DNA of 64,000 nucleotides from Escherichia coli. GTDB lineage: Bacteria; Pseudomonadota; Gammaproteobacteria; Enterobacterales; Enterobacteriaceae. The DNA lies in the NCBI RefSeq assembly GCF_044324785.1, contig NZ_CP172127.1. One strand, given 5' to 3'. The notes beneath the pieces are model-generated. The model was not told the DNA's origin. It was given only the letters and a program-made list of their open reading frames with translations, and did not search any database. Of this stretch, positions 18,475 through 56,168 are shown piece by piece (position 1 is the stretch's first letter; each line of letters starts with the position of its first letter). The position numbers were made by a program, and so were the translations under genes.

Positions 18475-18523
18475 CTTTTTCTGCTTCACCTTAATCGGAT
18501 AATCTCAACAAAAAGAGTTACTT

Positions 18524-21493: not shown

Positions 21494-21535
21494 CCCGTAA
21501 CTTATTTTTGCCAAAAATTTGGATACAGAGTAAAT

Positions 21536-22543: not shown

Positions 22544-22568
22544 AGATTTAAGGTTAAAATAATTCAAT

Positions 22569-23276: not shown

Positions 23277-23300
23277 TGATTATGATGAAGGGTAATTAAA

Positions 23301-24314: not shown

Positions 24315-24322
24315 TATTCGAG

Positions 24323-25465
24323 ATGGTTGATAAAATAATATTTACAGTTACTCCTATTTTTTCAATTCCTCCTCGCGGAGCGGCCGCTGTTGAAACGTGG
24401 ATGTATCAGGTTGCTCAGCGTACCAATTTCCCAAATCGTATTGTTTGTATCAAGAATCCAGGATACTCAAATTACACCTTTGTTAATGATAATTGTAGTA
24501 TTCATAGGGTTGGATTCAGTCGCATATATAAGCGGTTATTTCAAAAATGGACAAGACTTGATCCTCTTCCATATTCACAGAGAATATTGAATATTGCCCA
24601 TGATTTTCCTATAACGAAAGAAAGTGTTATTGTAGTTCATAATAGCATGAAGCTATACACTCAAATTCGTAAGCGAGCTCCTCAGGCAAGAGTGGTTATT
24701 CATATGCATAATGCATTTGAACCAAAATTGCTTGAGCAAAATGTTAAAATGATAGTGCCTAGTTTATACTTGAAAAAGTATTACCAATCTTATTTAGCAA
24801 ATGCAGATATTGAGATTGTACCAAATGGAATTGATTTAGAAACCTATCAATCTACTTTTCAGCCGATCACTAGAAGCGAACTTAATATCTCCCCTGAAGA
24901 GAAAATTATTTTTTATGCTGGGCGTATCGTCCCTGATAAAGGCATATTACTGTTGATGCAATCATTCGAAAAATTGGCCGCTGCTCACAAAAATTTAAAA
25001 TTAGTTGTGATTGGTGATTATACAGAAATGAGTAAAAGTGACAAAGGTGCATATCAACACAATGTCAGGGAAATTGCAAAACGTTTGAAGGATCGTTGCA
25101 TTATGTTAGGAAGCATACCGCCTGAAAAGATGCATTGTTATTACCCACTGGCAGATTTAGTCATCATTCCTTCCCAGTTCCAGGAACCATTTTGCATGGT
25201 GGCAATTGAAGCTATGGGGGCTGGTAAGCCTGTTTTAGTGAGTACGCGTGGGGGGATGACGGAATTTGTCAAAGAAAATACTACGGGATTCCATTTAAAA
25301 GAACCTATGACTGCAGACTCTATAAGCAGCGATATTTTAAAAACGTTAGCGAATCCTGAATTAACAGCAGTTGCAAAGCAAGGTCAGGATTTTGTGTTTG
25401 ATCACTACAGTTGGGATGGCGTAACTCAAAGATTTGAAGAGGTCATTCATAATTGGTTTGAATAA
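24323..25465 (+). CDS. waaD: LPS outer-core glycosyltransferase, family GT4 (WaaD-like, R3-type terminal transferase)
   Basis: 380-aa ORF with GT4 EX7E-type region (...EPFCMVAIEAMGAGKPVLVSTRGGMTEFV...). Symbol is a tentative R3-type assignment. Confidence 0.45.
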   Translation: MVDKIIFTVTPIFSIPPRGAAAVETWMYQVAQRTNFPNRIVCIKNPGYSNYTFVNDNCSIHRVGFSRIYKRLFQKWTRLDPLPYSQRILNIAHDFPITKESVIVVHNSMKLYTQIRKRAPQARVVIHMHNAFEPKLLEQNVKMIVPSLYLKKYYQSYLANADIEIVPNGIDLETYQSTFQPITRSELNISPEEKIIFYAGRIVPDKGILLLMQSFEKLAAAHKNLKLVVIGDYTEMSKSDKGAYQHNVREIAKRLKDRCIMLGSIPPEKMHCYYPLADLVIIPSQFQEPFCMVAIEAMGAGKPVLVSTRGGMTEFVKENTTGFHLKEPMTADSISSDILKTLANPELTAVAKQGQDFVFDHYSWDGVTQRFEEVIHNWFE

Positions 25466-25467
25466 AT

Positions 25468-25500
25468 AAAAAGGCCGCATTATGCAGCCTTTTTTATTTT
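25468..25500. terminator. hairpin plus T-rich tract between convergent waaD-like and waaL
   Basis: aaaaaggccgcattatgcagccttttttatttttt. Confidence 0.4.
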
Positions 25501-26709
25501 TTACTTGTTTTTCATTGCTAATAATAAGCCGGCGTAAACGCCTAATAAATTTGGTTCAATTTGTTCTACGTTTCCACGGATAACAAAATAACCTATAAAA
25601 GATAGTAAGATTATATAATATGCATTATATGGTGAGCGGTTTTTATTCTGGACGCCATTTTTTATACACTCTTTCAATATTGCACAGTATAGCATCATAA
25701 GACTTATCAGCCCTAATAAACCAGTGCCAAACCAGATGAATAGCGCAAAATTATGTGGCCCTATCGATTGTCTAAAGGTCCATTCTGGATAATCAACGAC
25801 ACGTTTATTATAGACATCTTTATATGCAACGTTACCGTAACCGTAACCAATAACAGGATTTTCTAATATTAGATCGAGTGCGCTGCCTTGAGTACCATTT
25901 GCATAGCGATAAGAACTATTAGTTTGTTGAAGTTTATACGTTAGCTTTGCGGTCATCTCCTTATGTGTGAAAATAACCGACAATGCAATGATGGAAACCA
26001 TTACTCCTACTAATAGTAACTTCCATTGTTTAAACATCAGAATCCATATTAATCCAATGACTAACACGGAAAGCCAGGCCCCTCTGGATAAAGTTCCTAA
26101 TATCAGAAAAATAAAAATAAAGCTTAGAACCACAAAAGAAATGCGGTATTTTGCTGATTTGATAAGCCAGAGATTTAACAATGCAGGGAATAAAAAGACC
26201 ATCGAGTCAGAAATGCTACGGTGTCTATAATCTGCGAATGGCATTATCCCTTGTTGATAGTCCTTATAATAGGCAATCAATTCAGAAAAACAGCGTAAGC
26301 CCAACGCACTAATAAATGAGAAGAAAACGATTTTTTCGACATCTTCTCTTTTCTCGTCTCTCAATATGACTGGTATTGCTATTGTGCATAGTAAAGTATT
26401 CTCAATAATAGCTTTGAAAATTTCCTTCATGCTAGCCCCTGCATCAGGGGATTGAAGAAGTGACAGCAATGCAGCAATAGTTAATATGGCAACACTACCA
26501 AAAAGAAATGTTTTAAATAGTGAGAGATAGTGTTTTGGCCGTTTGCAGAGATAGACGATTGTCGTTATTGTCATAAGAATAACAATAAGATGTTTATACC
26601 TTGTAATCCCACCCAAAAAATAGGTGGTAATGAATAAGAATACGAGAGCTCTGTTCCAGTACGCTATCCAGTTTTTTTTCTCGAGAGAGAAAAATAATGT
26701 TGAGGTCAT
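25501..26709 (-). CDS. waaL: O-antigen ligase
   Basis: 402-aa polytopic membrane protein, AT-rich, located upstream of waaC in the hldD-waaF-waaC-waaL operon. Confidence 0.8.
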   Translation of the reverse strand: MTSTLFFSLEKKNWIAYWNRALVFLFITTYFLGGITRYKHLIVILMTITTIVYLCKRPKHYLSLFKTFLFGSVAILTIAALLSLLQSPDAGASMKEIFKAIIENTLLCTIAIPVILRDEKREDVEKIVFFSFISALGLRCFSELIAYYKDYQQGIMPFADYRHRSISDSMVFLFPALLNLWLIKSAKYRISFVVLSFIFIFLILGTLSRGAWLSVLVIGLIWILMFKQWKLLLVGVMVSIIALSVIFTHKEMTAKLTYKLQQTNSSYRYANGTQGSALDLILENPVIGYGYGNVAYKDVYNKRVVDYPEWTFRQSIGPHNFALFIWFGTGLLGLISLMMLYCAILKECIKNGVQNKNRSPYNAYYIILLSFIGYFVIRGNVEQIEPNLLGVYAGLLLAMKNK

Positions 26710-27698
26710 CTTATCTCCGATGTCAACTTATTGATTATTATTTCAAGATTTAAATTTTGAAAAACGGTTTGAGCTGGCAAATCTGCAAGAGACATACTTG
26801 TAGAACGACACTCTACTTGATTCTTCCCATACCCACCAATTAATCCCGGATCGGTTGGTCCATAAACCGTGATATTGGGTCTATCCAGTGCCGCCGTTAA
26901 ATGGCTTAACCCCGTATCCACCGACACTACAAATTTAGCCCCGGCCAGCACGCGGGCAACGCCTTCCAGACTCATCTTCGGCAATACTTCAACATAAGCA
27001 AATCCTTCCGCCAGTCGTTTCGCCCGTTCTTCCTCATGCGGCGCGCCCCACGGAAGTTTAATCCGTATTCCTGAATCAGCCAGTAAACCAATCAATTCTC
27101 GCCAGTGTTCTTCCGGCCAGTGTTTATCATCACGGGTCGTCGCATGAAGAAATACGGCATATTCGCCAGCATCTGTAGGCAGGTTCGTCAGGAAATGCTG
27201 TGCAATAGCATAATCGCCCTGGGTTTGCGGTTTGCTATAGCCCAGACTTTTGGCAAACAGTTCGCGGGTGCGTTCTACGGCGTGCTGCTGTTTTGCAATA
27301 TGATGCTTACGATTGTAAAACAGGCTGGCTAACGGTTCGCGAGCGGTTTGCCAGTCCAATCCATGCTTTACGCCATGCGCCAGACGTGTCACCAGTGCCG
27401 CGCTTTTTACCAGCCCCTGAGCGTCGATAACTGCGTCATAGTTCTCTGCTTGTAGCGCTTCACGAAACGCTTTGCGTTCAGCTTTTATGGGGGCCGAGAA
27501 CCAGGCTTTACGCCAGCGACGTATTGCCACAGGAATAACTCGCTCAACGGCAGCGTGCCAGGAAGGAATCTGTGCGAACCCTTCTTCCACCACCCAGTCA
27601 AACTTAATCCCTGGGATTGCCTGCTGGGCATCAGTGAGTGCGGGCAACGTATGGAGAACATCGCCCATCGACGATGTTTTAACGATCAAAACCCGCAT
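26706..27698 (-). CDS. waaC: LPS heptosyltransferase I
   Basis: MRVLIVKTSSMGDVLHTLPALTDAQQAIPGIKFDWVVEEGF... Confidence 0.9.
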   Translation of the reverse strand: MRVLIVKTSSMGDVLHTLPALTDAQQAIPGIKFDWVVEEGFAQIPSWHAAVERVIPVAIRRWRKAWFSAPIKAERKAFREALQAENYDAVIDAQGLVKSAALVTRLAHGVKHGLDWQTAREPLASLFYNRKHHIAKQQHAVERTRELFAKSLGYSKPQTQGDYAIAQHFLTNLPTDAGEYAVFLHATTRDDKHWPEEHWRELIGLLADSGIRIKLPWGAPHEEERAKRLAEGFAYVEVLPKMSLEGVARVLAGAKFVVSVDTGLSHLTAALDRPNITVYGPTDPGLIGGYGKNQVECRSTSMSLADLPAQTVFQNLNLEIIINKLTSEIR

Positions 27699-40017: not shown

Positions 40018-41036
40018 TGAACCAACGTAATGCTTCAATGACTGTGATCGGTGCCGGCTCGTACGGCACCGCTCTTGCCATCACCCTGGCAAGAAATGGC
40101 CACGAGGTTGTCCTCTGGGGCCATGACCCTGAACATATCGCAACGCTTGAACGCGACCGCTGTAACGCCGCGTTTCTCCCCGATGTGCCTTTTCCCGATA
40201 CGCTCCATCTTGAAAGCGATCTCGCCACTGCGCTGGCAGCCAGCCGTAATATTCTCGTCGTCGTACCCAGCCATGTCTTTGGTGAAGTGCTGCGTCAGAT
40301 TAAACCGCTGATGCGTCCTGATGCGCGTCTGGTGTGGGCGACCAAAGGGCTGGAAGCGGAAACCGGGCGTCTGTTACAGGACGTGGCGCGTGAAGCGTTA
40401 GGCGATCAAATTCCGCTGGCGGTTATCTCTGGCCCAACGTTTGCGAAAGAACTGGCAGCAGGTTTACCGACGGCTATTTCGCTGGCCTCGACCGACCAGA
40501 CCTTTGCCGATGATCTCCAGCAGCTGCTGCACTGCGGCAAAAGTTTCCGCGTTTACAGCAACCCGGATTTCATTGGCGTGCAGCTTGGCGGCGCGGTGAA
40601 AAACGTCATCGCCATTGGCGCGGGGATGTCCGACGGTATCGGTTTTGGTGCGAATGCGCGTACGGCGCTGATCACCCGTGGGCTGGCTGAAATGTCGCGT
40701 CTTGGTGCGGCGCTGGGTGCCGATCCTGCCACCTTTATGGGCATGGCGGGGCTGGGCGATTTGGTGCTGACCTGTACCGACAACCAGTCGCGTAACCGCC
40801 GTTTTGGCATGATGCTCGGTCAGGGCATGGATGTACAAAGCGCGCAGGAGAAGATTGGTCAGGTGGTTGAAGGCTACCGCAATACGAAAGAAGTCCGCGA
40901 ACTGGCGCATCGCTTCGGCGTTGAAATGCCAATAACCGAGGAAATTTATCAAGTATTATATTGCGGAAAAAACGCGCGCGAGGCAGCATTGACGTTATTA
41001 GGTCGTGCACGCAAGGACGAGCGCAGCAGCCACTAA
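40017..41036 (+). CDS. gpsA: NAD(P)H-dependent glycerol-3-phosphate dehydrogenase
   Basis: [50 protein letters not shown]... Confidence 0.95.
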
Positions 41037-41114
41037 TCCCAGGGAACTTTGTTACCGCTATGACCCGGCCCGCGCAGAACGGGCCGGTCATTATCTCATC
41101 GTGTGGAGTAAGCA

Positions 41115-41936
41115 ATGTCGTGTGAAGAACTGGAAATTGTCTGGAACAATATTAAAGCTGAAGCCAGAACGCTGGCGGACTGTGAGCCAATGCTGGCCAG
41201 TTTTTACCACGCGACGCTACTCAAGCACGAAAACCTGGGCAGTGCACTGAGCTACATGCTGGCGAACAAACTGTCATCGCCAATTATGCCTGCCATTGCT
41301 ATCCGCGAAGTGGTGGAAGAAGCCTACGCCGCCGACCCGGAAATGATCGCCTCTGCGGCCTGTGATATTCAGGCAGTGCGTACCCGCGACCCGGCAGTCG
41401 ATAAATACTCAACCCCATTGTTATACCTGAAAGGTTTTCATGCCTTGCAGGCCTATCGTATCGGTCACTGGCTTTGGAATCAGGGCCGCCGCGCACTGGC
41501 AATATTTCTGCAAAACCAGGTTTCTGTGACGTTCCAGGTTGATATTCACCCGGCAGCAAAAATTGGTCGCGGTATCATGCTTGACCATGCGACGGGCATC
41601 GTCGTCGGTGAAACGGCGGTGATTGAAAACGACGTATCGATTCTGCAATCTGTGACGCTTGGCGGTACGGGTAAATCTGGTGGTGACCGTCACCCGAAAA
41701 TTCGTGAAGGTGTGATGATTGGCGCGGGCGCGAAAATTCTCGGCAATATTGAAGTTGGGCGCGGCGCGAAGATTGGCGCAGGTTCCGTGGTGCTGCAACC
41801 GGTGCCGCCGCATACCACCGCCGCTGGCGTTCCGGCACGCATTGTCGGTAAGCCGGATAGCGATAAACCGTCAATGGATATGGATCAGCATTTCAACGGT
41901 ATTAACCATACGTTTGAATATGGGGATGGGATCTGA
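41115..41936 (+). CDS. cysE: serine O-acetyltransferase
   Basis: MSCEELEIVWNNIKAEARTLADCEPMLASFYHATLLKHENLGSALSYMLANKL...; hexapeptide repeats. Confidence 0.95.
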   Translation: MSCEELEIVWNNIKAEARTLADCEPMLASFYHATLLKHENLGSALSYMLANKLSSPIMPAIAIREVVEEAYAADPEMIASAACDIQAVRTRDPAVDKYSTPLLYLKGFHALQAYRIGHWLWNQGRRALAIFLQNQVSVTFQVDIHPAAKIGRGIMLDHATGIVVGETAVIENDVSILQSVTLGGTGKSGGDRHPKIREGVMIGAGAKILGNIEVGRGAKIGAGSVVLQPVPPHTTAAGVPARIVGKPDSDKPSMDMDQHFNGINHTFEYGDGI

Positions 41937-41988
41937 CGTCCTGTGATTGTGCCGGATGCGATGTAATCATCTATCCGGCATACAGTAA

Positions 41989-42462
41989 CTAATCTCTCAA
42001 TACCGCTCCCGGATACCCCAGCTGCCGCCAGGCTTCATACACCACGACCGACACCGCATTGGACAGGTTCATGCTGCGGCTGTCCGGCACCATTGGAATG
42101 CGAATTTTTTGTTCAGCGGGCAGGGCATCAAGAATGCTTGCTGGCAGGCCGCGCGTTTCCGGGCCGAACATCAGATAATCGCCATCCTGATAGCTTACGG
42201 CGCTGTGAGCAGGCGTACCTTTCGTGGTGAGGGCAAACAGGCGCTGGGGATTTTCTGCTTCGAGGAACGCGCGATAGTCATGATGACGCGTAACGGCGGT
42301 AAACTCGTGATAGTCCAGCCCCGCGCGGCGCAGGCGCTTATCGTCCCAGGCAAATCCCATCGGTTCGATGATATGCAGACGAAAGCCGGTATTAGCGCAA
42401 AGACGGATGATGTTGCCAGTATTTGGCGGAATTTCTGGTTCGTAAAGTACGATGTTTAGCAT
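41989..42462 (-). CDS. trmL: tRNA (cytidine/uridine-2'-O)-methyltransferase TrmL
   Basis: [54 protein letters not shown]... Confidence 0.9.
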
Positions 42463-42534
42463 ACTGCCCCCTTAGTGCGGGGGCAGGATAGCAGAAAATT
42501 GGTGATTGGTACGGTCTTTTCCCCTCACCCCCGA

Positions 42535-43725
42535 CTATGCCGCATTCCCTTTCGCCATCGGAGCCAGTGCCGCAGGCAACTCTTTACCCAGCCCCTGCAC
42601 CAGCGAATCTTGCGTAATTTCGCTAATTGATTTCGCACCAGTCAGCGTCATTGCCACTTTCATCTCTTTTTCGATCAGATTCAGCAGGTTAGCTACACCC
42701 GCCTGGCCCGCTGTTGCCAGCGCATACAGGAAAGCACGACCCAGCAGTATGGTATCAGCACCGAGCGCGATCATACGCACGACATCAAGCCCGTTACGAA
42801 TCCCGCTATCTGCCAGAATGGCGATATCACCTTTCACGGCATCTGCAATAGCAGGCAGTGCACGAGCAGAAGAGAGTACGCCATCTAACTGGCGGCCACC
42901 GTGGTTAGAAACCACAATTCCATCAGCACCAAAACGTACTGCATCGCGCGCATCTTCCGGATCGAGGATCCCTTTGATCACCATCGGGCCATCCCAGAAA
43001 TCGCGGATCCACTCAAGGTCTTTCCATGAGATGGACGGATCGAAGTTATTCCCCAGCCAGCCGATGTAATCTTCCAGTCCGGTCGGTTTGCCGAGGTAAG
43101 CCGAGATATTACCTAAATCATGTGGACGACCGTTCAGGCCCACATCCCACGCCCATTGCGGATGCGTCACCGCCTGCAAATAGCGGCGCATTGCCGCGTT
43201 CGGGCCGCTCATCCCAGAATGTGCATCACGGTAACGTGCGCCCGGTGTCGGCATATCCACGGTGAAAACCAGCGTCGAGCAGCCTGCCGCTTTTGCTCGC
43301 TCCAGCGCGTTACGCATAAAGCCGCGATCGCGCAGCACATAAAGCTGGAACCACATCGGACGTTTAATGGCTGGAGCGACTTCTTCAATCGGGCAAACGG
43401 AAACCGTCGAGAGAGTAAACGGAATGCCATGCGCATCCGCCGCTTTGGCAGCCTGAACTTCGCCACGACGCGCATACATGCCACACAAACCCACCGGAGC
43501 CAGCGCCACCGGCATCGACAATTTCTCATTAAACAGCGTCGTTTCCAGGCTTAAGTCAGACATGTTTTTCAGAATACGCTGGCGCAGCGCCACTTCTGAC
43601 AAATCTTCCACGTTGCGGCGCAGCGTGTATTCAGAATATGCACCCCCATCCATATAGTGGAACAGGAACGGCGGCAGAATGCGTTGTGCTGCGGCGCGAT
43701 AATCGCTGGCTGCGGAAATAATCAT
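42535..43725 (-). CDS. lldD: L-lactate dehydrogenase (FMN-dependent)
   Basis: [50 protein letters not shown]... Confidence 0.95.
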
Positions 43726-44498
43726 GCGTTTTTCTCCCTCGAATGCTCATTATGGTCACCAGGCAGGCGGGTAATACGTGCATGGCGAGCTTGATCTTCA
43801 TCGAATCGTTTCATGGTAGTGTGAACAAAGCTAAGGTGCGCCATCATTGCTTTGCGCGCCCCGTCAGCATCACCGGCAAAAATGGCGTCAATGACTGCCT
43901 GATGTTGTTCGGTCAGCTGTGAAAAAACCGGGGGTACCAGATACATCCGCTGGCGGCTATGCTTCACAGAGGATTGCAGGACATCGAAGAAACCGCGCAT
44001 GGTTTGCAGCAGCACGATGTTATGTGAGGCTTCGGCAATCGCCAGATGAAAACGAACGTCCGCTTGTGAGGCGAGATCCGGGTCTTCACTTAGCGTTGCT
44101 TCAAAGCAAAGCTGAATTTTCTCTTTTTCGCCAGGTGTGGCGCGCATTGCCGCATGCCACGCGGTGCTGGCTTCAATGGCGTAGCGGGCTTCCAGAATAT
44201 CGAAACTGTAATCCGGATCATCGGCCATCAGCGTTTTCAGCGGCTGGACGATGTTTTGCTCCGACCATGTGTCATGACGCCAGCGAATAAACGTCCCGCC
44301 GCCGCGTCGACTAAGCAGCACGCCTTCGCTCACCAGTTTTGCCAGCGCCTCGCGCAGTGAATTACGCGACACACCGAGTTGCATCGCCAGTTGACGTTCA
44401 GCGGGCAACTTCATGCCCGCCTCCAGGTTTTTTTCATCAATCAGCGCCCGCACACGATCGGCAACCTCGTCTGACAGGCGTCTGGGTAAAACAATCAT
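43722..44498 (-). CDS. lldR: GntR-family L-lactate operon regulator
   Basis: ORF trimmed to [55 protein letters not shown]... Confidence 0.9.
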
Positions 44499-46153
44499 TA
44501 AGGAATCATCCACGTTAAGACATAAGCCTGAAGCGTGGTGATCACGCCCACCATACAGGTGAAGATCAGGCTGTGTTTGACAGTAAAGCGGAACAAATCA
44601 GACTCTTTGCCCACCAGGCCTACCGCCGCACAGGCGATAGCGATAGATTGCGGCGAGATCATTTTGCCGGTGACACCACCGGTGGTGTTGGCGGCAACCA
44701 GCAACAGGTCAGAAACGCCAATTTGTTGTGCTGCAGTGGCTTGCAGCGCGGCGAACAGGGCGTTAGATGAGGTATCCGATCCGGTCAGGAAGACACCAAG
44801 CCAGCCGAGGAACGGCGAGAAGAAGGTGAATGCATGGCCGGTGTGCGCCAGTGCCAGCGCCAGCGTTGATGATAGTCCGGAATAGTTCGAGATAAAGGCG
44901 AACGCCAGCACCATACCGATGGAGTAGATAGGCAGAGCCAGTTCTTTCAGCGTGCTGCCGAAGGTGCTGATAGCGTCAGATGGTTTCATCTTCAGCCAGA
45001 CAATTGAGAGCAGGGCAGCAAAAAGAATGGCGGTACCGGTGGCAGAGAACCAGTCGAACTTAAACACGGCGGCATACGCTGTCGCTTCGCTGACCACTGG
45101 CGGCATACGGGCAACCAGTTTATCGAGGTACGGCACCGGAATATTGATCACCCATTCATACAGCGCACCACCCGAAGCGAACAGGGCTTTAAACGGTGGA
45201 ATACTCCACAGCGTTACGGTGGCGGTCAGGAATAGGAACGGTGTCCAGGCGCGAAGCACCTGACCTGCGGTGTAACCGGTGTGAGCCAGCGTCATATCAA
45301 CCTGTGACGCCCCTAAGTCACCGAAGCGGAATACGCGCACTGGTTGCCAGCGTTTGAGGAACAGCGTCAGGCAGAGCAGTGATACCAGCGAAGAGATAAT
45401 GTCTGGCAGTTCCGGCCCAATGAAGTTAGAGCTGAGGTATTGAGCAATGGCAAACGAACCACCTGCAACCACGACCGCAGGCCACGTTTCTTTGATTCCG
45501 CGCCAACCGTCCATAATCGCCATGATCCAGAACAGCACGATAATGGTCATAAACGGCAGCTGACGCCCCACCATCTGACCAATCTCAAAGCTGTCGATGC
45601 CTGTTACCTGCCCGGCGACCAGAATCGGAATACCCATCGCGCCAAATGCCACTGGTGCGGTGTTAACAATCAGGCACAGTCCGGCGGCGTAGAGTGGTTT
45701 AAAGCCCAGACCGACCAGCAATGCGGCGGTAATTGCTACCGGTGCGCCAAAGCCTGCGGCTCCTTCAAGGAAAGCGCCGAAACAGAAACCGACGATCAGC
45801 ATTTGCAGGCGCTGGTCAGGGGTTATCGAAAGAATAGACGAGCGGATGATGTCAAACTGCCCGGTTTTCACCGAGATCTTATAGACGAACACCGCTGCAA
45901 TAATGATCCACGCGATGGGCCACAAACCGTAGAAGAAGCCATAAATCACCGAGGCCAGCGCGTTAGCGACCGGCATTTTATAGAACAGCAAAGCCACGGC
46001 AAGGGCGATTGCCACCGTCCATGAGGCGGCGACATAACCTTTGAGTTTGAGCTTAATCAGCGCAAAGAAGAAAAACAGGATGGGAAGCGATGCTATCAGA
46101 CTGGAAAGCCAGATATTCCCGGCGGGATCGTAGTTTTGTTGCCAGAGATTCAT
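44498..46153 (-). CDS. lldP: L-lactate permease
   Basis: ORF trimmed to [41 protein letters not shown]... Confidence 0.9.
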
Positions 46154-46385
46154 TGCAGGTCTCCTGGAGTCCACGCACATCGTGTAATGAGTCTGATGCT
46201 CATCTCCTTGTCACACGTTGTGTAAAAGTGGCACTGCCAATTGTGTTGTGTAGGGATAATGACAATGAATGGTTAACTAAATGTTATGCATTGGCAACAT
46301 TGATGCGAGTTTTAATTGGGGAATTGTGAACCAGAGGTCAGATAAGCGAAGAATTGGTAGGGCCAATCTTGGGGGAGAGGTAATG

Positions 46386-46420
46386 AAGAAAAGGGCAATC
46401 CTCATCAGAGAATTGCCCTC
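46386..46420 (-). terminator. rho-independent terminator downstream of the autotransporter gene
   Basis: On minus strand: gggcaattctctgatgaggattgccc followed by ttttcttc. Confidence 0.5.
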
Positions 46421-46431
46421 AGATTGTTGAC

Positions 46432-46535
<104 letters not shown>

Positions 46536-46564
46536 GTGGCGTTTACCCATTCGTTAATGGATGA

Positions 46565-49500
46565 TTACCACTGAATACCGGCACCGAGTGCGGCGGAGTA
46601 TTCACCCTGGCTATTGGTACTACCTTGTAATTTGTAGACCCAACGACCATTGGCGCTCACCATCGACACACCTAAAGCAACAGCCGACTCACCGTTGTAA
46701 GTACCGCCACCAATAGAGGCCATACTGGCACCTGGAGTGTAAGCCTGCGGCAGACCGGTCATTGCCATTGCAGAAGCGATACCACCGCTCAACTTGCTTT
46801 CGGTTTTGGACAGTTTGTTATCCATCTCAACCATCCGCTGATCGGTGTATTGCTTCGTTTCCTGCACGCTTTGCTTCAGCTGCGCATAGTTCACTGCGTC
46901 GTTGTTGTTCACGCCAGCGGAGACGTTGCTGATGCGAGTCGTACCGCCATTACCACCACCGAGAGTGATGTTGCTGTAGTCTACAGAGCCATCAGCTTTG
47001 GTGTCGTAACGAACGCCGCCTGCCTCAGAAGACTTCAGCTGCGAAACGTTAACCGCATCGGTGGCATTAACACCTGCAGCAACGTTGGTGATACGACGCT
47101 GGTTGGTAGAAGAACCCACAGAGATGGTATTTTCTTCGTTGGCCACGGAGCCTGTACCCAGCGCGACGCTGTTGTCAGCGGCAGCAATGGAACCAGAACC
47201 AATCGCAACACTGTCTTTACCCTGCGCGTTGGCATCTACGCCATCGGTGTTGGTCTTGAAGTATTTGGTGCTACCGGTGGTTACGATATCGCCAATGCCG
47301 TTTTCGATATTGGTAACGCGAGTATCCAGATTCGTCACCTGATTGTTCAGGTTAGTAATGCTCTGGGTATTCTGGGAAACCTGCGCGTCCGTTACTTTCA
47401 ACTGACCCACGTTGACCGCATCGGTATCAGCCGAACCAGCCGCGACGTTGGTGATCTGACGTTGACCGTCTTCACTGCCGACAGAGAACTCACCCACAGA
47501 GTTCTGCGGTGCATCCATGTTGTAGGCGGTGTAGCCAGTTTGAGCACCACGAGTCGTCTGTGAGCCATTACCCATAGCAATGCTGTTTGCATGGTTTGCA
47601 CGCGCGTTGCTACCAATAGCAATACCGTTGATCGCATCAGACAGAACCAGAGTGTTCAGGCCGATACCAATGCCCGCATTACCATTAACGATAGTATTCG
47701 CGCCCATTGCCAGCGAGTCAGTACCTACTGCCAGTGAATCTTCTTCCGTTGAATTAGCGTGGAAGTATTTAGTCGGCGTGGTTGCAACTGCACCAATGGC
47801 ATTTTGCAACTGGCGAACCGTAACGGCGTCATGGGCTTCGGAACCATCGGCTACGTTGATGATTTGACGATATTTACCATCATCACCAATAGACAACGCA
47901 CCAAGTAGTTCGCCATCCGTGGTGTCATAACCAATCACAACACCTTCTTCCGACACGCTGGTGTCACGAGAACCTTTAACTATTACACGGCTGGAAACAG
48001 AACTGCTACCCAGGGCGATACCCGTATCAACGTCGCTGTAGCTGTCCTGACCGATGACTACACTGCTATGGCCTTCGGCAACAGCGTTATAACCCACGGC
48101 CACGCTGCTATCGCCTTTGGCAACAGAGTCATAACCGACAGCGGTAGAGCCGATACCAACTGCGCTGGCGTCGTTGAACGCTAAGCCCTTATCGTTGGTA
48201 CGCACATAGTTAATACCTGCACCATTTTCGTTGATATAGGATTCGCTGGTGTCACCGGCAAGCTGATTGATGATTTCGCTGTTCTGCTGGATCATCATAT
48301 TGGTGTTAAACAGCTGAGAACCGTTGATGGCGTCGGTACTGCCTTCGCCAATGTTACCATCAGCAACGTTTGTGATGATGCTGGCCTTGCCGTCATGGCT
48401 GGCGTTGTAGGCACCTGCACCGTCATTGGCCGTTGCATCCCACAGCAGAGCGTTATCGTCGAGCGCATCCAGGGCGTCACCGACGTTGTTGTACTCGGCA
48501 TTTGCAATGGTGTAACTCGGCGCAGTGATAGTGCCGTCAGCGTTAACTTCTGCGTCACCCCCCAGGGCATCGGCAATGTATTTGTTGGTGGTATACAGTT
48601 GTGAACCGTTAATGGCATCGCTGCTGGTGGCAGAGATTGCACCGTTAGCGACGTTAGTGATTACACTGGCTGTTTTATCTTTTCCGTGAGCGGCGCTAAA
48701 TGCACCATTACCATCATTGGCTGTAGCATCCCACAGCAGGGCGTCATCCAGCGTGGTATCGATCGCTTCCAGCGCGTCACCGACGTTGCTGTAACTGCCG
48801 CCAGCGATGGCATAAGTCGGTGCGGTGATTGTGCCGTCAGCATTGACTTCTGCGTCACCACCCAGAGTATCGGCAATGTACTTGCTGGTGTCATAGAGCT
48901 GTGAGCCGTTAATAGCGTCGCTGCTGGTAGAGGAAATTGCACCGTCTGCAACATTAGTAATGATGCTGGCCATGTTATCTTTTCCGCGACCGGCGCTAAA
49001 CGCACCGTCACCGCCCTTGGCGGTCGCATCCCAGAGTAGGGCGTCACCGAGTGATGTGCTAAATGACGTGTTAATGGCTGCCAGAGCCTCACCGACGTTA
49101 TTGTAGTCAGTACCACCAATAGTGTAGGTTGGCCCGGTTAATACACCCGCATCGCTGATATCAGCACCACCGCCAAGGTATGACGTAAATGAATCAGCTA
49201 AGCCATAAAGTTGTGAGCCATTAATGGCGTCAGTGCTGTCAGAGGATACTGTGCCTGCCAGTAAGTTGGTGATTTTGCTGTCAGTACCGTTGGTGCCGTG
49301 TTTGGCACTGAATGCACCCGCCGTAGCATTCCACAGCAGAGAGTCATCACCGAGACTGTCAACAGCATCACTCAGGTTGTTGATATTGGTAGTGTTGGTG
49401 GTGATATTGGCGGTATTGGTCGCCACGTTATCGTTGGTGGTTTTCAGCTGAGAGCCGTTAACCGCGTCGGTGCTGCCAGCCGCCAGTTCACCGGCTTTGA

Positions 49501-52279
49501 CGTTGGTGATTTTGTTGGTGGCATCGGTGCCGTGCGCGGCGCTGAATGCTTTCGCTGCATCATTCCACAGCAGAGAGTCATCACCGAGACTGTCAACAGC
49601 GTCAGTCAGGTTGGTGATGTTGGTGGTGTTCGTGGCGATATTGGTGGTGTTGGCTGCCACGGCATCGTTAGTGGTTTTGAGCTGAGAGCCGTTAACCGCG
49701 TCGGTGCTGCCAGCCGTCAGGTCACCGTCTTTGACGTTAGTGATTTTGCTGGTGGCATCGGTACCGTGTGCGGCGCTGAATGCTTTCGCTGCATCATTCC
49801 ACAGCAGAGAGTCATCACCGAGACTGTCAACAGCGTCAGTCAGGTTGGTGATGTTGGTGGTGTTCGTGGCGATATTGGTGGTGTTGGCTGCCACGGCATC
49901 GTTAGTGGTTTTGAGCTGAGAGCCGTTAACCGCGTCGGTGCTGCCAGCCGTCAGGTCACCGTCTTTGACGTTAGTGATTTTGCTGGTGGCATCGGTACCG
50001 TGTGCGGCGCTGAATGCTTTCGCTGCATCATTCCACAGCAGAGAGTCATCACCGAGACTGTCAACAGCGTCAGTCAGGTTGGTGATGTTGGTGGTGTTCG
50101 TGGCGATATTGGTGGTGTTGGCTGCCACGGCATCGTTAGTGGTTTTGAGCTGAGAGCCGTTAACAGCGTCGGTGCTGCCAGCCGTCAGGTCACCGTCTTT
50201 GACGTTGGTGATTTTGCTGGTGGCATCGGTGCCGTGCGCGGCGCTGAACGCGGTGCCATTCCACAGCAGGGCATCGTCTTTAAGGTCGCCAACGGAATCA
50301 GTCAGGTTGGTGATATTGGTGGTGTTGGTCGCTACGTTATCGTTGGTGGTTTTGAGCTGAGAGCCGTTAACCGCGTCAGTGCTGCCAGCCGTCAGGTCAC
50401 CGTCTTTGACGTTGGTGATTTTGCTGGTGGCATCGGTGCCGTGCGCGGCGCTGAACGCGGTGCCATTCCACAGCAGGGCATCGTCTTTAAGGTCGCCAAC
50501 GGAATCAGTCAGGTTGGTGATATTGGTGGTGTTGGTCGCTACGTTATCGTTGGTGGTTTTGAGCTGAGAGCCGTTAACCGCGTCAGTGCTGCCAGCCGTC
50601 AGGTCACCGTCTTTGACGTTAGTGATTTTGCTGGTGGCATCGGTGCCGTGCGCGGCGCTGAACGCGGTGCCATTCCACAGCAGGGCATCGTCTTTAAGGT
50701 CGCCAACGGAATCCGTCAGGGTATTGATACTGTTAGTGTTGGTGGTGATATTGGCAGTATTGGTCGCTACGTTATCGTTGGTGGTTTTCAGCTGAGAACC
50801 GTTAACCGCATCCTTACTGGTATCAGAAATAGCGCCGTCTTTAACGTTGGTGATGGTACTGGTAGTATCTGTACCATGTGCCGCACTATATGCCTTTTTA
50901 AGGGAGTCCCATTGTAACGTATTATTGTCCAGGCCCGTTAAGGCGTCGCCAACAGTGCCGAAAATACCACTTTTCAGCCTGTAATTTGGGGAAGTAACGA
51001 CGCCTTGCGCATTGACGGTAGCCCCCCCACCAAGATTGTCCGCTACTGACTTACTGATAGCATAAAGCTGTGATCCATTGATGGCATCAGTACTGGTAGT
51101 GCTGATATCACCTGCTGCCATATTGACAATTTGTCGCTGAGCTGTTGTGTTACCCACAGAAACAGTATCCGCGTCAGTCGCTACAGAACCAGCACCCAGA
51201 GCAACTGAATTTTTCCCCTGAGCACTGGCTTGAGCACCAATTGCAGTGCCATTTTCTAAACCGGCATAACTGCCTTGTCCAAGAGCAATAGCATTTACAC
51301 CACCTGTAATACTACCATTACCCAGCGCGATAGCATTTGCGCCGTCAGCTTTATTCCCTTGACCGATGGCAATTGCGCCAGCCGCTACTGCCTGACTTTG
51401 ATTGCCCAGAGCAATCGTGTTGTCGACATCTGCAATACTGCCGGAGCCCAACGCGATACTATTAAGTCCATTTGCCTCCGCGTTAGTACCAACTGCCGTC
51501 GCATTTTCAGCAGCTTTGCTCTCTGCACCCATAGCAATCGCGTTTGCGTCGCTGGCGGCGGATAGTCTGCCTAATGCGAGGCTGTCTACGCCAGCAGCAG
51601 CACTGTTACGGCCTACTGCAATCGCGTTAGCTGCAGATGCGGCACTACTTGCACCCAGCGCCATTGCATATTCTTTCGACGCATTAGCCGTTGCACCGAG
51701 GGCGATACTCATAATTCCTAAGGCCTTGCTCTTACGTCCAAATGCGATGGCGTCATCAGCACCAGTCTCTGCGTAATCCCCTTGTGCAATAGCAAATTCA
51801 CCTGTTGAGTTTGCATAACGACCAAGTGCGATTGAAAATCCACCCGTTGACGTTGCCGATGCACCTATAGCGAGGCTTCGCTCACCTGCTGAGATAGTGT
51901 TAATCCCTAACGCCACTGATGCTTCGCCAAGCGAATGGGTCTTAGCACCGAGGGCTGTTGACCACCTTCCGTCAGCAGTTGAGTGATAACCTACTGCGGT
52001 GCTGGAGCCACCCCCGGTGTCTGTAAAGCTATTTGCTTTTGCATCTTCACCGATAGCAACCCAGCCTGTTCCTGTGCCCTGGCCATAATTGACGCCCTGA
52101 CCGTTGTCAATCCCGGCATTCGCCAGTGCCCCAAACGACGACAACAACCCACCCGCAACCAGGGCAGAAATTAACAGCTTACTGCGCCCGCTCTTTTTGC
52201 CACGGCTTTTGGCCGTTTCGCTGGCAACGGTGTAACTGCCCGTAGCCGGATTCCAGATAACTTTAAAAATTTTGTTCAT
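46565..52279 (-). CDS. trimeric autotransporter adhesin (YadA-like membrane anchor; UpaG/EhaG/SadA family), 1904 aa
   Basis: N-terminal extended signal peptide [21 protein letters not shown]...; hundreds of residues of NxxAxG/SxAxG head and neck repeats; C-terminal YadA-type anchor ...[41 protein letters not shown] ending in aromatic residue. Confidence 0.9.
49452..50800. repeat. near-identical in-frame tandem repeats inside the autotransporter gene (3 x 234 bp then 3 x 207 bp)
   Basis: Antisense ORF track shows identical 71-aa peptides at 49704 and 49938 (period 234) and identical 62-aa peptides at 50172 and 50379 (period 207); in the sense frame the protein repeats [48 protein letters not shown]... 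Confidence 0.85.
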
Positions 52280-52322
52280 TATTGATGCTCTCTATTCCTT
52301 GATATAAGCGCAGAAGCTGCAT

Positions 52323-53006
52323 TTATTTTTTGTTTTTTCGCTGCCGAGTTTCAGCAGGTTGAACAGTGTCGAACTGGAGATTGGCCATATTGATGGACAA
52401 CTTCAGATACTTCAGGTTATTAGGCGAAACGCCTTTTAATGTCAGATTAATGTCTTGCCATTGACCAGGCATTAATTGCAGAGTGGAATTCATGGTGGTG
52501 TTGAAAAGTAATTGTTGCCACTTTGCCAGAGCTTTGGCATCGGTGGGTCTTTCATTGCCCCATGTCGCATGAAAGCCAATATTTGATACGGGAACGCTTA
52601 AAAGGTTAACCAGCGAAATACGAATAACACTGCCATTTTCAACCGCATCAATAGCCAGCACCCGGCCTGCCAAACCGACCGATCCGTTATTTAAAATGAA
52701 ATATTGTGTTTGTGCTGGGTTAAATTCTGTAAAGACAAATTCGTCCTGCTTGTCTTTAACCGCTTTCACCACGCCAGCGAGCGTTTTGGTACTATTTATG
52801 ATGGTAGTTTGTTGTTTTTCAAAATGTTCTATCTTTCGCTTATCGAGTTCCTGTTGTTTCTCAAGCGCCTCAATTTTGCTTTTTTGCAACTCTTGCTGTG
52901 TAACGAGGTCGTCGACCTTACTCGCTTTTTCAATATAGTCACACCCTGCCAATAAGCAGAGAGGCACTATTATTAACACGCTTAACAGTGTTTTCTTTAG
53001 GTTCAT
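52323..53006 (-). CDS. SadB-like lipoprotein (putative trimeric autotransporter export helper)
   Basis: Lipobox LLAGC after signal peptide; coiled-coil segment QQELQKSKIEALEKQQELDKRKIEHFEKQQ; encoded immediately upstream of and co-oriented with the autotransporter, as sadB is with sadA in Salmonella. Confidence 0.6.
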   Translation of the reverse strand: MNLKKTLLSVLIIVPLCLLAGCDYIEKASKVDDLVTQQELQKSKIEALEKQQELDKRKIEHFEKQQTTIINSTKTLAGVVKAVKDKQDEFVFTEFNPAQTQYFILNNGSVGLAGRVLAIDAVENGSVIRISLVNLLSVPVSNIGFHATWGNERPTDAKALAKWQQLLFNTTMNSTLQLMPGQWQDINLTLKGVSPNNLKYLKLSINMANLQFDTVQPAETRQRKNKK

Positions 53007-53494
53007 AGGATGAATTCCTTTTCATAATCCCGATACGTTGATAATTACAGTACAATCATTTTTTTTATGAATGATTAGAGTGGGGCATATCCGCCAAATA
53101 AATTTGTTAGAGAATTTTTGTATTAATGGGTTGTGCGAATATGTTTTTAAGTGTCAAACAATTTTAGTTTGTAGCCAATAAATAAATTGATCGCGCGGAT
53201 TTTAATGATCGCTGTCAATCAATGTCAAATGTTTCACCGGATAAAGGCCCAGGGAAGGGAAAGGTAAATATTCAGTTGAGTGATGTTTTATTGCGAAGTT
53301 TGCGATGCTGATAGAAAAATTTAAATAATTAATTATGTTTCAAGCATTGATATGCGGTAATTCATTGCTGATATTGATACATCATTATTTAATTTGTACC
53401 TGCTTTTCAGAATTTAGCCTGCTCCGAGCGCTCAGAAGTGTAGGTGGAGTTGAATATATAATGTTAAGAACGTTACAAATATTCGATCTCTGAA

Positions 53495-53525
53495 ACAGGC
53501 TCCTGCATGTGCCAGCAGGAGCGAG
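53495..53525 (-). terminator. stem-loop downstream of yibL
   Basis: ggctcctgc-atgtgcca-gcaggagc 8-9 bp stem. Confidence 0.4.
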
Positions 53526-53566
53526 TAAATCGTGAGTGGCTGTAATTACAGCGACGAGAAAGGAAC

Positions 53567-53929
53567 TTAAAACGCAGTCTTAGAGAATCCAGTCATCTCC
53601 TGCAGGCCCATTTCACGGCCCAGCGCGGTCATTGGGTGCACAACGACCAGTCCGCGAACGCTCTTCTTCAGTTTGCCCATATCAGCTTGCTCTTTTTTAG
53701 TAATCGCGCGCTGGAACGGCATCTTCATCAGCTTCTGTGCTTCCTTACTGAGTTTCTGGCTGTGAACTTCGCGCAGGCGAGCAATTTCTGCTTCCAGAGT
53801 GGCTTTCTCTTTTTCCAGTTCGGCATATTTGTCTGCGGCTTCCACCAGCGACAGATCGGCCTGCTGGTGACGGATGGCGTCCAGACGATCGCTGAGACGT
53901 TTGATTTCGTTTTTTTCGACTTCTTTCAT
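53567..53929 (-). CDS. yibL: YibL family ribosome-associated protein
   Basis: 120-aa [55 protein letters not shown]... Confidence 0.85.
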
Positions 53930-54212
53930 GTGATGACTTCTGATAGAGATAAATTTATAGCCTCTAGTATGCGCGACCAGGTGCTTTGTTCACAACTGAT
54001 GACATTGCAATAGTTCTATAACGTAATCATTAACTTGCTTAAAAAGCACGCAATTTGTTGATTAATTAAGAAATTTAAAGAAAAAAGATAGTTAACAGAA
54101 GCGGATGATTATTGAGGATTGAGCACGTTTTCCTTAATGTCATTTATACCGGGATCTAAACTAAAATTGGCGGCCGCGCATTCCCGGCGCGGGGTAATAC
54201 GGAGATATCATC

Positions 54213-54422
54213 ATGGGCAAATTAGGTGAAAACGTTCCGCTTCTTATCGATAAAGCCGTAGATTTCATGGCATCCAGCCAGGCGTTCCGGGAGTATCTGA
54301 AAAAACTACCTCCCCGTAACGCGATTCCGTCCGGAATACCTGATGAAAGCGTGCCGTTATATCTACAACGTCTGGAGTATTATCGTCGGCTTTATCGGCC
54401 GAAACAGGTAGAGGAGAAGTAA
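54213..54422 (+). CDS. yibT: small protein YibT-like (69 aa)
   Basis: ORF at the position occupied by yibT between yibL and mtlR; symbol from position, sequence not independently verified. Confidence 0.55.
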
Positions 54423-54432
54423 GCGAAAGTAC

Positions 54433-55020
54433 TTACTTTTGAAAGGCTTTTTTTAAGCTGATTTTGGAAATCAGCTCTGTCAGTGAAAGGACCATTGTTG
54501 ATCGCACAGCCTGTTGGTAACGCTGAATTTGCATTGCATACAAACTGGAGTCTGCAGGTTCAAACTGTGGCGGCGGTGGTAACGCCGCCACGCAATGCAG
54601 TTCACCAAAGGGTCCAAGGATTTCGTCGTCGGTAAACGCGTACTCGTTGCCGTCGTGATTTAGCTCTTCACGCAATGCCATCAGTAGCTCCGCATCTTCG
54701 TATTCCTGGCGGTTAATGACGCCCAACCCGTAAATGAGTTTTAAACGCACAGAAAGCTCGCCCAGCGGACCGTCGCCGTCGAGTAACGGTTCTACAGCAT
54801 ACTTCACCGCGTAATCGTCTTTGCGGAATACCTGAAGCACCAGAAGATTTACCGCCTCGGTCAAAAGCTCGACGGCGGTGATCAGAAAGCTTCGCACGGT
54901 TTTGCCAGCATTCAGACGCTCAAGCACACGGTTTTCAAAGGCCTGGGTTTGTTCCATTGTTGCCTGCATATCTGACAATCTGTTATTCGGGCGCAGGGTG
55001 TCCTGCGCCTGGTCCACCAT
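54433..55020 (-). CDS. mtlR: mannitol operon repressor
   Basis: 195-aa ORF directly downstream of mtlD. Confidence 0.85.
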   Translation of the reverse strand: MVDQAQDTLRPNNRLSDMQATMEQTQAFENRVLERLNAGKTVRSFLITAVELLTEAVNLLVLQVFRKDDYAVKYAVEPLLDGDGPLGELSVRLKLIYGLGVINRQEYEDAELLMALREELNHDGNEYAFTDDEILGPFGELHCVAALPPPPQFEPADSSLYAMQIQRYQQAVRSTMVLSLTELISKISLKKAFQK

Positions 55021-56168
55021 TATTGCATTGCTTTATAAGCGGTTACCGCCTCGGATACAACCTCGCTGTTGGCATCAAGACCGGAAATCTGTGCCAGCGC
55101 CGCCTGCGGACCTTTGTCAGCGATCAGTGCTGCCAGTTCCTGAGCCTGCGGATCATCTTCACTGCGGAAGTGCATTGCAGCGGCAATACCTTCAATCAGG
55201 TTTTTATGTGGCAGACCATATTCCAGCGTACCGAGCAGTGGCTTGATCAGACGGTCACCAGCGCTCAGTTTACGCAGCGGCTGACGGCCTACGCGCTCTA
55301 CATCATCTTTCAGATACGGGTTCTCAAAACGACCAAGGATTTTCTGGATGTACGCCGCATGTTTGTCCGCGTCAAAGCCGTAACGCTTGATCAGTACCGC
55401 GCCGCTTTCTTCCATCGCACCTTTTACCACCGCGCGGATTTTCTCGTCGAGAATCGCATCACGAATGGTCTGATGACCCGCCAGTTTTCCGAGGTACGCG
55501 GTTATAGCATGACCCGTATTCAGGGTGAAGAGTTTACGTTCGACAAATGCCATCAGGTTGTCGGTTAACTCCATGCCTGGGATGTTCGGCAGCGCGCCTT
55601 TGAACTGGGTTTTATCAACAATCCATTCGCTGAATGTTTCTACCGTCACTTCCAGCGGATCGTTGGTTGCAGAAGCCGAAGGCGGCACGATGCGGTCAAC
55701 GGCGGAATCAACAAAGCCAACGTGTTCTTCTACCCACGCTTTGGCATCTTCTGGCAGGGCGTTCATCACATGGCCTTTCAGCTGCGTGGTGCCGCGTACC
55801 ATGTTTTCACAAGCGATAATGTTCAGTGGGGATTCATTACCTTGTTCTTTACGTTTCACCAGCCCTTTGGCGATTGCCGGGGCAATACGTTCCAGCACAA
55901 CCGGACCAACGGCGGTAGTGACTAAATCAACCTGAGCAATCAGATCAACGACATCATCACCAATGCTGCTGACGGCATTGACGCCGGAAACGGTATCTAC
56001 CTGCTCGGTTTCACCGACCACATGAACCTGATAGCTATGACGGGCATTCAGGGCATCAAGTACCACCTGATTGACATCGGCAAACGTCAGTTGGATACCC
56101 GCGTCTGCCAGCAGTTTACCGATAAAGCCACGACCGATATTACCTGCGCCAAAATGTAATGCTTTCAT
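55020..56168 (-). CDS. mtlD: mannitol-1-phosphate 5-dehydrogenase
   Basis: ORF trimmed to [34 protein letters not shown]... (382 aa). Confidence 0.95.

Follow-up and report, generated by a model that had tools for sequence, protein, structure and literature searches.

The region between positions 46565 and 53006 of the window (the whole 64,000-nucleotide stretch of Escherichia coli DNA analysed here) is very probably an intact sadBA-type operon, the UpaG/EhaG locus that E. coli carries with the mtl operon on one side and the lld operon on the other. A sequence-only reading of the same DNA had described a 227-residue lipoprotein with a coiled coil encoded directly 5′ of a 1904-residue YadA-type adhesin; both open reading frames and their domains are present as described, and neither translation has an internal stop. 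Gene content, intactness, homology, synteny, strain distribution and repeat-number variation are all established for this locus. Its genes are laid out as follows:

53567-53929, minus strand: yibL, placed by comparison with annotated genomes
52323..53006, minus strand: sadB homologue, a 227-residue open reading frame with an ATG start
52280..52322, minus strand: spacer of 43 nt separating the sadB-like stop from the adhesin start
46565..52279, minus strand: trimeric autotransporter adhesin, a 1904-residue open reading frame with an ATG start
start at about 46153, minus strand: lldP, placed by comparison with annotated genomes

CFT073 (annotated upaG), UTAK-15 (annotated ehaG), N3 and five further strains share this gene order, from yibL through lipoprotein and adhesin to lldP. 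The adhesin gene lies between yibL on the mtl-operon side and lldP on the lld-operon side, the position that marks UpaG, EhaG and SadA orthologues, and its C-terminal 504 residues are 94-97% identical to UpaG and EhaG, bearing out the proposed membership of the UpaG/EhaG positional family. UpaG of CFT073 (c4424) shares the chromosomal site, operon layout and module types, also follows a 227-residue lipoprotein, and differs in having 1778 residues and nine stalk modules rather than 1904 and ten. In enterohaemorrhagic and diarrhoeagenic E. coli the positional orthologue is EhaG, which is flanked by the same two genes but has 1616 residues and only four modules. The lipoprotein at the EhaG locus is 242 residues long because its stop codon has been lost, and its reading frame runs on to the ehaG start. 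The resemblance to Salmonella sadB-sadA that had been noted from the sequence also stands: the Salmonella enterica pair (STM3690-STM3691; PDB 4C47, 2YO0 and 2YO3) has the same gene order, strand and mtl/lld position, and its spacer is 44 bp (PMC3953254) against 43 nt in the window. Seven other E. coli loci with a 227-residue lipoprotein have the 43-nt spacer too. A terminator scan found no terminator-like hairpin in this spacer, which holds a purine-rich ribosome-binding stretch, GGAATAGAGAG; the lipoprotein gene is directly adjacent to the adhesin gene on its 5′ side.

Sequence and fold comparisons support the lipoprotein as a SadB homologue. Its signal peptide, as read from the sequence, ends in the lipobox LLAG followed by C22, with Asp23 at +2, and C22-D23-Y aligns with the Asp-Tyr that comes right after the cysteine of SadB. 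A phmmer search places residues 23-227 on chain residues 3-207 of Salmonella SadB (4C47; E 2.2e-70) without gaps. The two proteins thus align over their full length, each with a lipidated Cys and Asp at +2, but they are only 54% identical (53.7% for the mature protein as a whole, 44% for the coiled coil and 58% for the C-terminal domain). The lipoprotein is more similar to its counterparts in E. coli, with 89% identity to the CFT073 protein and 66.5% to that of the EhaG locus. A heptad-patterned helix extends over approximately residues 29-87, and in its best register the a/d positions are V,I,I,V / L,L,F,I,L,V with interspersed Gln. The AF2 model, of moderate confidence (pLDDT 67), has a helix at 29-87 followed by eight strands, which corresponds to the SadB-family fold of a long N-terminal coiled coil and a MATH-like beta-sandwich. 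Foldseek with this model returns 4C47 chains A-C first (E 1e-18) and then YajI (2JWY). Scans of Pfam-A and NCBIfam gave no significant match to the lipoprotein, so the SadB relationship was established by searching PDB sequences and by comparing folds; NCBIfam PRK11530, a model presumably representing YajI, matches residues 117-203 weakly. An unrelated lipoprotein, which the sequence-only reading had kept in view, is refuted by these alignments.

Two known proteins help to place the lipoprotein. YajI, an enterobacterial SadB paralogue and the second-best structural match, is likewise a lipoprotein whose C-terminal domain adopts this beta-sandwich fold, but it is encoded at an unrelated locus near yajC-secDF, has no autotransporter partner and is about 14-15% identical to SadB (PMC3953254). 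The TpgA-AtaA pair of Acinetobacter sp. Tol 5 is the other known helper pair; there the gene of a small envelope protein neighbours that of a giant trimeric adhesin, whose surface display the small protein promotes. TpgA is nevertheless unrelated to SadB, has a BamE-like and an OmpA-type peptidoglycan-binding domain, and acts at the outer membrane and peptidoglycan; it is an analogue of SadB and not a homologue.

Alternatively, the lipoprotein could serve a purpose of its own, as YajI may do, and be no more than a neighbour of the adhesin; YajI is linked to no autotransporter (PMC3953254). Direct contact between SadB and SadA could not be demonstrated in Salmonella (PMC3953254), and neither Pfam nor NCBIfam assigns the lipoprotein to a functional family, both of which would fit such a reading. 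On the other hand, the same-strand spacing of 43-44 nt is kept from Salmonella to E. coli, both genes are lost together in K-12, and the lipoprotein gene is present in all nine of the other adhesin-bearing loci examined. In two independent studies, SadA display rose 3-6-fold when SadB was co-expressed (4-6-fold, with better protease resistance, in PMC3953254, and 3-fold in PMC11054257). A global survey further places SadB homologues beside trimeric autotransporter genes, in Enterobacterales only. A coincidental neighbour is accordingly highly unlikely, and the lipoprotein is treated below as the adhesin's putative helper.

The domain composition of the adhesin is that of a type Vc trimeric autotransporter of the YadA family, with an ESPR-type Sec signal, a passenger made of head, neck and stalk, and a membrane anchor:

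52121..52279, minus strand: extended signal peptide (ESPR), residues 1-53, ending in ALA with NAG following (Pfam ESPR at residues 1-48, E 1e-15)
51149..52012, minus strand: N-terminal YadA-like head, residues about 90-377 (YadA_head repeats)
48416..50689, minus strand: array of ten stalk modules, residues 531-1288, with a D-A/S-L-L-W motif at each module start
46568..46750, minus strand: YadA-type membrane anchor, residues 1844-1904 (Pfam YadA_anchor, E 2.9e-19)

In addition to the YadA_head repeats at residues 90-377, Pfam finds three further patches of these repeats and about 17 YadA_stalk motifs. The anchor matches the Hia anchor structures 3EMO and 2GR7 with E-values of 1e-16 to 1e-22. 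Anchors of the YadA type contribute four strands per chain to a 12-stranded barrel. The signal peptide of UpaG likewise comprises residues 1-53 (PMC5670179). A 539-residue open reading frame on the opposite strand (49298-50917) was rejected as a Gly/Val-rich read-through of the adhesin repeats.

A run of 1904 stop-free codons with domain E-values of this order is far beyond chance. It also bears on whether the adhesin gene might be a decaying or non-functional remnant whose long reading frame yields no working fibre, a pseudogene being an outcome that the sequence-only reading had allowed for. The locus is dispensable, as the lipoprotein gene is missing from 1277 of the 5426 complete genomes, K-12 among them, and near-identical repeats are prone to deletion, the N3 adhesin being shorter by one 100-residue module. 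However, the adhesin gene is full length from ESPR to anchor, its 5715 nt containing neither a stop nor a frameshift, and its anchor matches that of UpaG, a functional adhesin, with 100% identity. The protein is exactly RefSeq WP_395765595.1 and is found unchanged in 17 UniRef entries, and the nine alleles compared are all intact, differing in length by whole in-frame modules. The chance that the gene is a remnant is practically negligible.

The membrane-proximal part of the adhesin places it firmly among the UpaG, EhaG and SadA orthologues. Identity to both UpaG and EhaG is 100% over the last 100 residues of the protein; over the last 504 it is 96.6% to UpaG and 93.8% to EhaG. The SadA fragments 2YO0 and 2YO3 match with 474 and 313 bits and are about 90% identical to the membrane-proximal 400 residues, although SadA as a whole has 1461 residues and fewer stalk modules. 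These alignments, which the sequence-only reading had proposed as a check, thus agree with the position of the gene in assigning it to this orthologous group.

Identity over the entire protein falls to 80% for UpaG and 79% for EhaG, and the head is the most divergent portion. Residues 54-470 are 51% identical to the head of CFT073 UpaG and 62% to that of EhaG, yet 97-100% identical to five other E. coli alleles, and DNA at least 95% identical to the head coding sequence occurs in 456 of 5426 complete E. coli genomes (8%). Among the RefSeq records compared, this allele class is labelled ‘YadA-like family protein’; under NCBI naming the head type is that of neither UpaG nor EhaG sensu stricto. 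Because of this low head identity, the adhesin is better regarded as an orthologue with a third head allele than as UpaG or EhaG proper, and for the same reason binding specificity cannot be transferred from the characterised proteins. According to a review (PMC7247748), UpaG and EhaG mediate aggregation and biofilm formation and bind extracellular matrix proteins.

The stalk varies in a different manner, by whole modules. The spacings of the ten modules are 69, 69, 76, 78, 78, 78, 100, 100 and 97 residues, and several copies are 95-100% identical, the 69-residue copies being identical and the 78-residue copies nearly so. Tandem Repeats Finder recovers the same periodicity in the gene as units of 207 nt (3.1 copies), 234 nt (4.1 copies) and 300 nt (2 copies). 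Module number ranges from 4 to 10 among nine alleles, with the ten of the window the highest; RIVM_C037134 has 5 and A287 has 8. The adhesin of strain N3 differs from that of the window only in lacking residues 1118-1217, a single module.

The locus is variable between strains, as had been claimed. Of 5426 complete E. coli genomes, 4149 (76%) carry a sadB-like gene. K-12 retains 371 nt between lldP and yibL and has neither gene, which matches the short gap given in the sequence-only reading. Positions 46508-53565 of the window are missing in K-12, from 57 nt past the adhesin stop to the yibL stop, and the junction falls at the edge of the first REP element. According to Grin et al. (2014), the operon has the mtl and lld operons as its neighbours in Escherichia, Salmonella and Shigella, and K-12 has lost it (PMC3953254).

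Presence in one strain and absence in another could alternatively reflect recent acquisition of a genomic island by this strain. The lipoprotein gene and the region upstream of it have a GC content of 33-42%, below that of the surroundings; head and lipoprotein fall into discrete allele classes, and the immediate flanks are 93-96% identical to K-12, which suggests recombination. Allelic exchange by homologous recombination accounts for this mosaic pattern, however, and the same site is occupied in three-quarters of complete E. coli genomes as well as in Salmonella and Shigella (PMC3953254). No integrase, tRNA or IS element was found at the borders among the open reading frames of the window and in annotated relatives, and the K-12 junction at a REP element is deletion-like. 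Recent acquisition is extremely unlikely, and an ancestral locus lost by K-12 is the preferred reading.

Candidate expression signals lie on both sides of the gene pair, with promoter and terminator identified here as consensus matches only:

53199..53228, minus strand: predicted sigma-70 promoter, TTGACA, 18 nt, TAAAAT (11 of 12 consensus matches)
46448..46532, minus strand: REP pair just 3′ of the adhesin stop, read from the sequence
46391..46420, minus strand: intrinsic-terminator-like hairpin, a 13-pair stem followed by a T-run, between the adhesin operon and lldP (terminator scan)

The predicted promoter lies about 190 nt 5′ of the sadB-like start in a 559-nt AT-rich intergenic region of 33-36% GC, and forms the best-conserved island when the upstream region in the window is aligned with its counterparts in CFT073 (UpaG) and UTAK-15 (EhaG). 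The terminator-like hairpin is kept in the window, CFT073, UTAK-15 and K-12. An Rfam scan of positions 45500-54500 gave no RNA family above threshold; below it were a REP-derived naRNA4 match at 46439-46479 and otherwise only a chance-level match to STnc380. H-NS repression of upaG is cited in PMC5012682.

The localisation, helper function, adhesive function and H-NS control of the pair in the window are inferred from what has been published on Salmonella SadBA and on UpaG/EhaG. Transcription would probably start at the sigma-70 promoter, be silenced by H-NS at the AT-rich upstream region under most laboratory conditions, and end at the hairpin past the REP pair. The SadB homologue would carry its lipid on Cys22 and be kept in the inner membrane by Asp at +2, in keeping with the Asp +2 rule and with the inner-membrane localisation of SadB, itself a trimeric lipoprotein (PMC3953254). 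It would trimerise through its N-terminal coiled coil, with three beta-sandwich domains facing the periplasm. The adhesin is predicted to be exported by Sec with its extended signal peptide, after which three chains would form a 12-stranded outer-membrane barrel with the Bam complex. The passenger would then be threaded outward, and head, stalk modules and anchor would make up a long fibre that, by homology, may support adhesion, aggregation and biofilm formation.

The most likely contribution of the SadB homologue is to hold or synchronise the three unfolded and highly repetitive chains near the Sec machinery, which would favour assembly in register. It would thereby raise the amount and quality of displayed adhesin, probably without being strictly essential. 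Truncated UpaG assembles in the E. coli laboratory strain AD202 with no co-expressed helper (PMC5670179), and therefore a helper is not obligatory for assembly of the barrel.

A more speculative and rather doubtful proposal is that the head allele marks a third type of adhesin, different in function and with a receptor or tissue preference of its own, and that the ten-module stalk makes this adhesin unusually dependent on SadB for chain register. Such dependence might be heightened because the 69-residue modules are identical and the 78-residue modules nearly so. If this proposal is true, the adhesin would lend itself to testing the idea of register synchronisation, which Grin et al. proposed but never proved.

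The UpaG/EhaG adhesin family was characterised between 2008 and 2012. UpaG of uropathogenic E. coli CFT073 was reportedly described by Valle et al. in 2008, and Totsika et al. are said to have described EhaG, the diversity of EhaG and UpaG, and their control by H-NS in 2012. The operon, the helper lipoprotein, the conserved position and the absence from K-12 were already published in 2014 (Grin et al., PMC3953254). What the window adds is confined to local particulars, namely a head allele unnamed in the RefSeq records compared and an array of ten stalk modules. As the exact proteins are already in RefSeq, the importance of the locus beyond correct annotation is slight. Automated pipelines may nevertheless under-annotate this common pair of adhesin and helper, because the RefSeq label of the adhesin is generic and the lipoprotein has no Pfam-A or NCBIfam match. 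For the family, near-identical strains that differ by the in-frame gain or loss of entire stalk modules show how the fibre comes to vary in length, and fibre length bears both on the reach of the adhesin beyond LPS and capsule and on its use as a vaccine antigen.

In the sequence-only reading, a lipoprotein gene and a YadA-type adhesin gene were proposed to form an operon between lldP and yibL resembling Salmonella sadB-sadA. Both open reading frames (ORFs) are found exactly where that reading had placed them, and the sadBA-type interpretation is supported by homology, synteny and intactness. The locus is laid out as follows, with the two ORFs taken from the ORF listing and yibL and lldP placed by comparison with annotated genomes.

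53567-53929, minus: yibL, upstream of the operon
53228-53199, minus: predicted promoter (TTGACA, 18 nt, TAAAAT), the top candidate of this region in a consensus scan
52323-53006, minus: lipoprotein ORF, 227 aa, ATG start
46565-52279, minus: adhesin ORF, 1904 aa, ATG start
46448-46532, minus: pair of repetitive extragenic palindromic (REP) elements directly after the adhesin stop codon
46420-46391, minus: predicted terminator-like hairpin (13 pairs and a T-run) after the REP pair
start ~46153, minus: lldP, downstream of the operon

Translation of the lipoprotein and adhesin ORFs reveals no internal stops, and a terminator scan finds no terminator-like hairpin within the 43-nt spacer between them. 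The published arrangement is closely similar: in Escherichia, Salmonella and Shigella the mtl and lld operons flank sadA, and the sadB lipoprotein gene, 44 bp upstream of sadA, belongs to the same operon (Grin et al. 2014, PMC3953254). The yibL-lipoprotein intergenic region spans 559 nt at 33-36% GC, and the promoter-like site is its clearest conserved island when the upstream regions of the window, CFT073 and an EhaG-type locus are aligned. The hairpin at 46420-46391 is conserved in all four aligned loci, K-12 included. A run of nine A residues (53058-53066, minus) lies in the predicted 5' leader, ~50 nt before the lipoprotein start codon, and is conserved in CFT073. Repression of upaG by H-NS is cited in PMC5012682.

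The lipoprotein carries the lipobox L-L-A-G-C22 followed by Asp23. A PDB sequence search gives one match, 4C47 (Salmonella "inner membrane lipoprotein", which is SadB; E 2.2e-70), in which residues 23-227 align gap-free to chain residues 3-207 with an overall identity of 53.7%; the coiled-coil part taken alone is 44% identical and the C-terminal domain 58%. An AlphaFold model of moderate confidence (mean pLDDT 67) has a single long helix (29-87) followed by a beta-rich domain; in a Foldseek comparison with the PDB its top hits are three 4C47 chains (E ~1e-18), then the paralogue YajI (2JWY). By simple heptad count, V/I/L/F occupy the a and d positions of one register, with Gln interspersed. 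Scans of 52323-53006 against Pfam-A and NCBIfam (release 20) return no significant match; a weak NCBIfam hit at residues 117-203 (E 0.005) is to PRK11530, presumably the YajI paralogue. RefSeq names the protein "DUF3251 domain-containing protein" or "SadB/YajI family lipoprotein", and its exact sequence is found on 626 contigs. The explanation that an unrelated lipoprotein happens to neighbor the adhesin is contradicted by direct evidence.

Pfam assigns the adhesin the following parts.

Residues 1-48: ESPR extended signal peptide (E 1e-15)
Residues 90-377: YadA_head repeat block, with three shorter head-like patches further along
About 17 copies: YadA_stalk motifs
Residues 1844-1904: YadA_anchor (E 2.9e-19)

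SadA fragments in the PDB match residues 1487-1830 at ~90% identity (2YO0, 474 bits; 2YO3, 313 bits), and Hia anchor structures are also among the matches. A pseudogene is another rival, and it too is contradicted directly: signal peptide, head, stalk and anchor are all present, and therefore the gene is complete from one end to the other. Tandem Repeats Finder detects arrays of 207 nt (x3.1), 234 nt (x4.1) and 300 nt (x2) in 48459-50809. At the protein level the stalk has ten consecutive modules, each opening with D-A/S-L-L-W, at spacings of 69, 69, 76, 78, 78, 78, 100, 100 and 97 residues. Both full 69-aa units have the same sequence, and the first two of the 78-aa units likewise match each other exactly. 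The exact protein is RefSeq WP_395765595.1, and its database cluster consists mostly of "partial" proteins of ~950-1120 aa from draft assemblies. Near-identical stalk repeats evidently break short-read assemblies, so surveys of adhesin length from drafts would be unreliable. Antisense to the repeats is a GTG-started 539-aa ORF (49298-50917, plus) whose product is a repeat rich in Gly/Val/Ile/Arg; it is almost certainly a side effect of the biased, repetitive codons of the opposite strand.

At the same site lies a gene annotated as upaG in CFT073 (1778 aa) and as ehaG in UTAK-15 (1616 aa); the lipoprotein encoded ahead of it has 227 aa in CFT073 and 242 aa in UTAK-15. The window's lipoprotein is 89% identical to that of the UpaG locus versus 66.5% for the EhaG locus. 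The adhesin is 79.9% identical to UpaG and 78.8% to EhaG overall, 96.6% and 93.8% over its last 504 residues, and 51% and 62% in the head (residues 54-470). The EhaG-class lipoprotein (UTAK-15 locus, 9373-10101) has 242 rather than 227 residues; its stop codon is gone, and the ORF crosses the former spacer to finish at the ehaG start codon. The window's head allele is not rare: among 5426 complete E. coli genomes, 456 have head-coding DNA of 95% identity or more, and RefSeq gives the product in these no name beyond "YadA-like family protein." The best overall match, strain N3, has an identical adhesin save for one absent 100-aa module (residues 1118-1217). Nine alleles sampled range from 4 to 10 modules and 1518 to 1904 aa, every change being in frame, and the window's is the longest.

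A sadB-like gene is present in 4149 of the 5426 genomes, chromosomal in every case, with identities of at least 95% in 745, 80-90% in 1121 and 60-80% in 2271. Together with the absence of any integrase, tRNA or insertion sequence at the borders of the locus, this distribution directly contradicts recent acquisition as an island. K-12 is known to have lost both sadA and sadB by deletion (Grin et al. 2014, PMC3953254). In alignment, window 46508-53565 is replaced there by about ten unrelated bases, and the lldP-yibL gap is 371 nt; the missing stretch runs from 57 nt past the adhesin stop to the base adjoining the yibL stop. The left junction (46507/46508) coincides with the border of the first REP after the adhesin gene, which suggests that one end of the deletion lay within or at a REP. 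An Rfam naRNA4 match at 46439-46479 is below threshold (36 bits; gathering score 59.5) and corresponds to the second REP.

Identity to K-12 is ~98% over most of the window and drops to 93-96% in lldD-lldR-lldP (41000-46500) and yibL-yibT-mtlR (53566-56000), an elevated-diversity shoulder on either side of the adhesin locus. This pattern fits homologous recombination that exchanges alleles around a gene undergoing diversification. Elsewhere, the LPS core region (waa/rfa; 12921-21389, annotated in K-12 as coaBC through rfaP) is ~90% identical to K-12 and 21390-26817 has no megablast match to it, suggesting a core type different from that of K-12.

Salmonella SadB forms trimers that combine a coiled coil of nine heptads with MATH-like beta-sandwich domains. 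Its co-expression raises surface SadA 4-6-fold, improves protease resistance and lessens non-specific stickiness; a direct SadB-SadA interaction could not be demonstrated, and SadB was proposed to synchronize export of three unfolded, repetitive chains (Grin et al. 2014, PMC3953254). An effect on display of ~3-fold was reproduced in a 2024 study (PMC11054257), and a 2026 survey found SadB homologues adjoining trimeric autotransporters in Enterobacterales only. UpaG and EhaG are described in PMC7247748 as SadA positional orthologues active in aggregation, biofilm formation and matrix binding. Sequence features, homology and synteny were observed directly, as were intactness and variation across the population; on these grounds the locus is very probably an intact operon of the sadBA type that works in the way reported for Salmonella SadBA and E. 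coli UpaG/EhaG, and the three rivals are together improbable. Localization, trimerization, activity as a helper, adhesion and control by H-NS would follow the literature on those systems. The operon is already known in all structural and positional respects, and public databases already contain both proteins with identical sequences; what is particular here, a head allele unnamed in the RefSeq records examined and a large number of modules, warrants no more than a minor follow-up.
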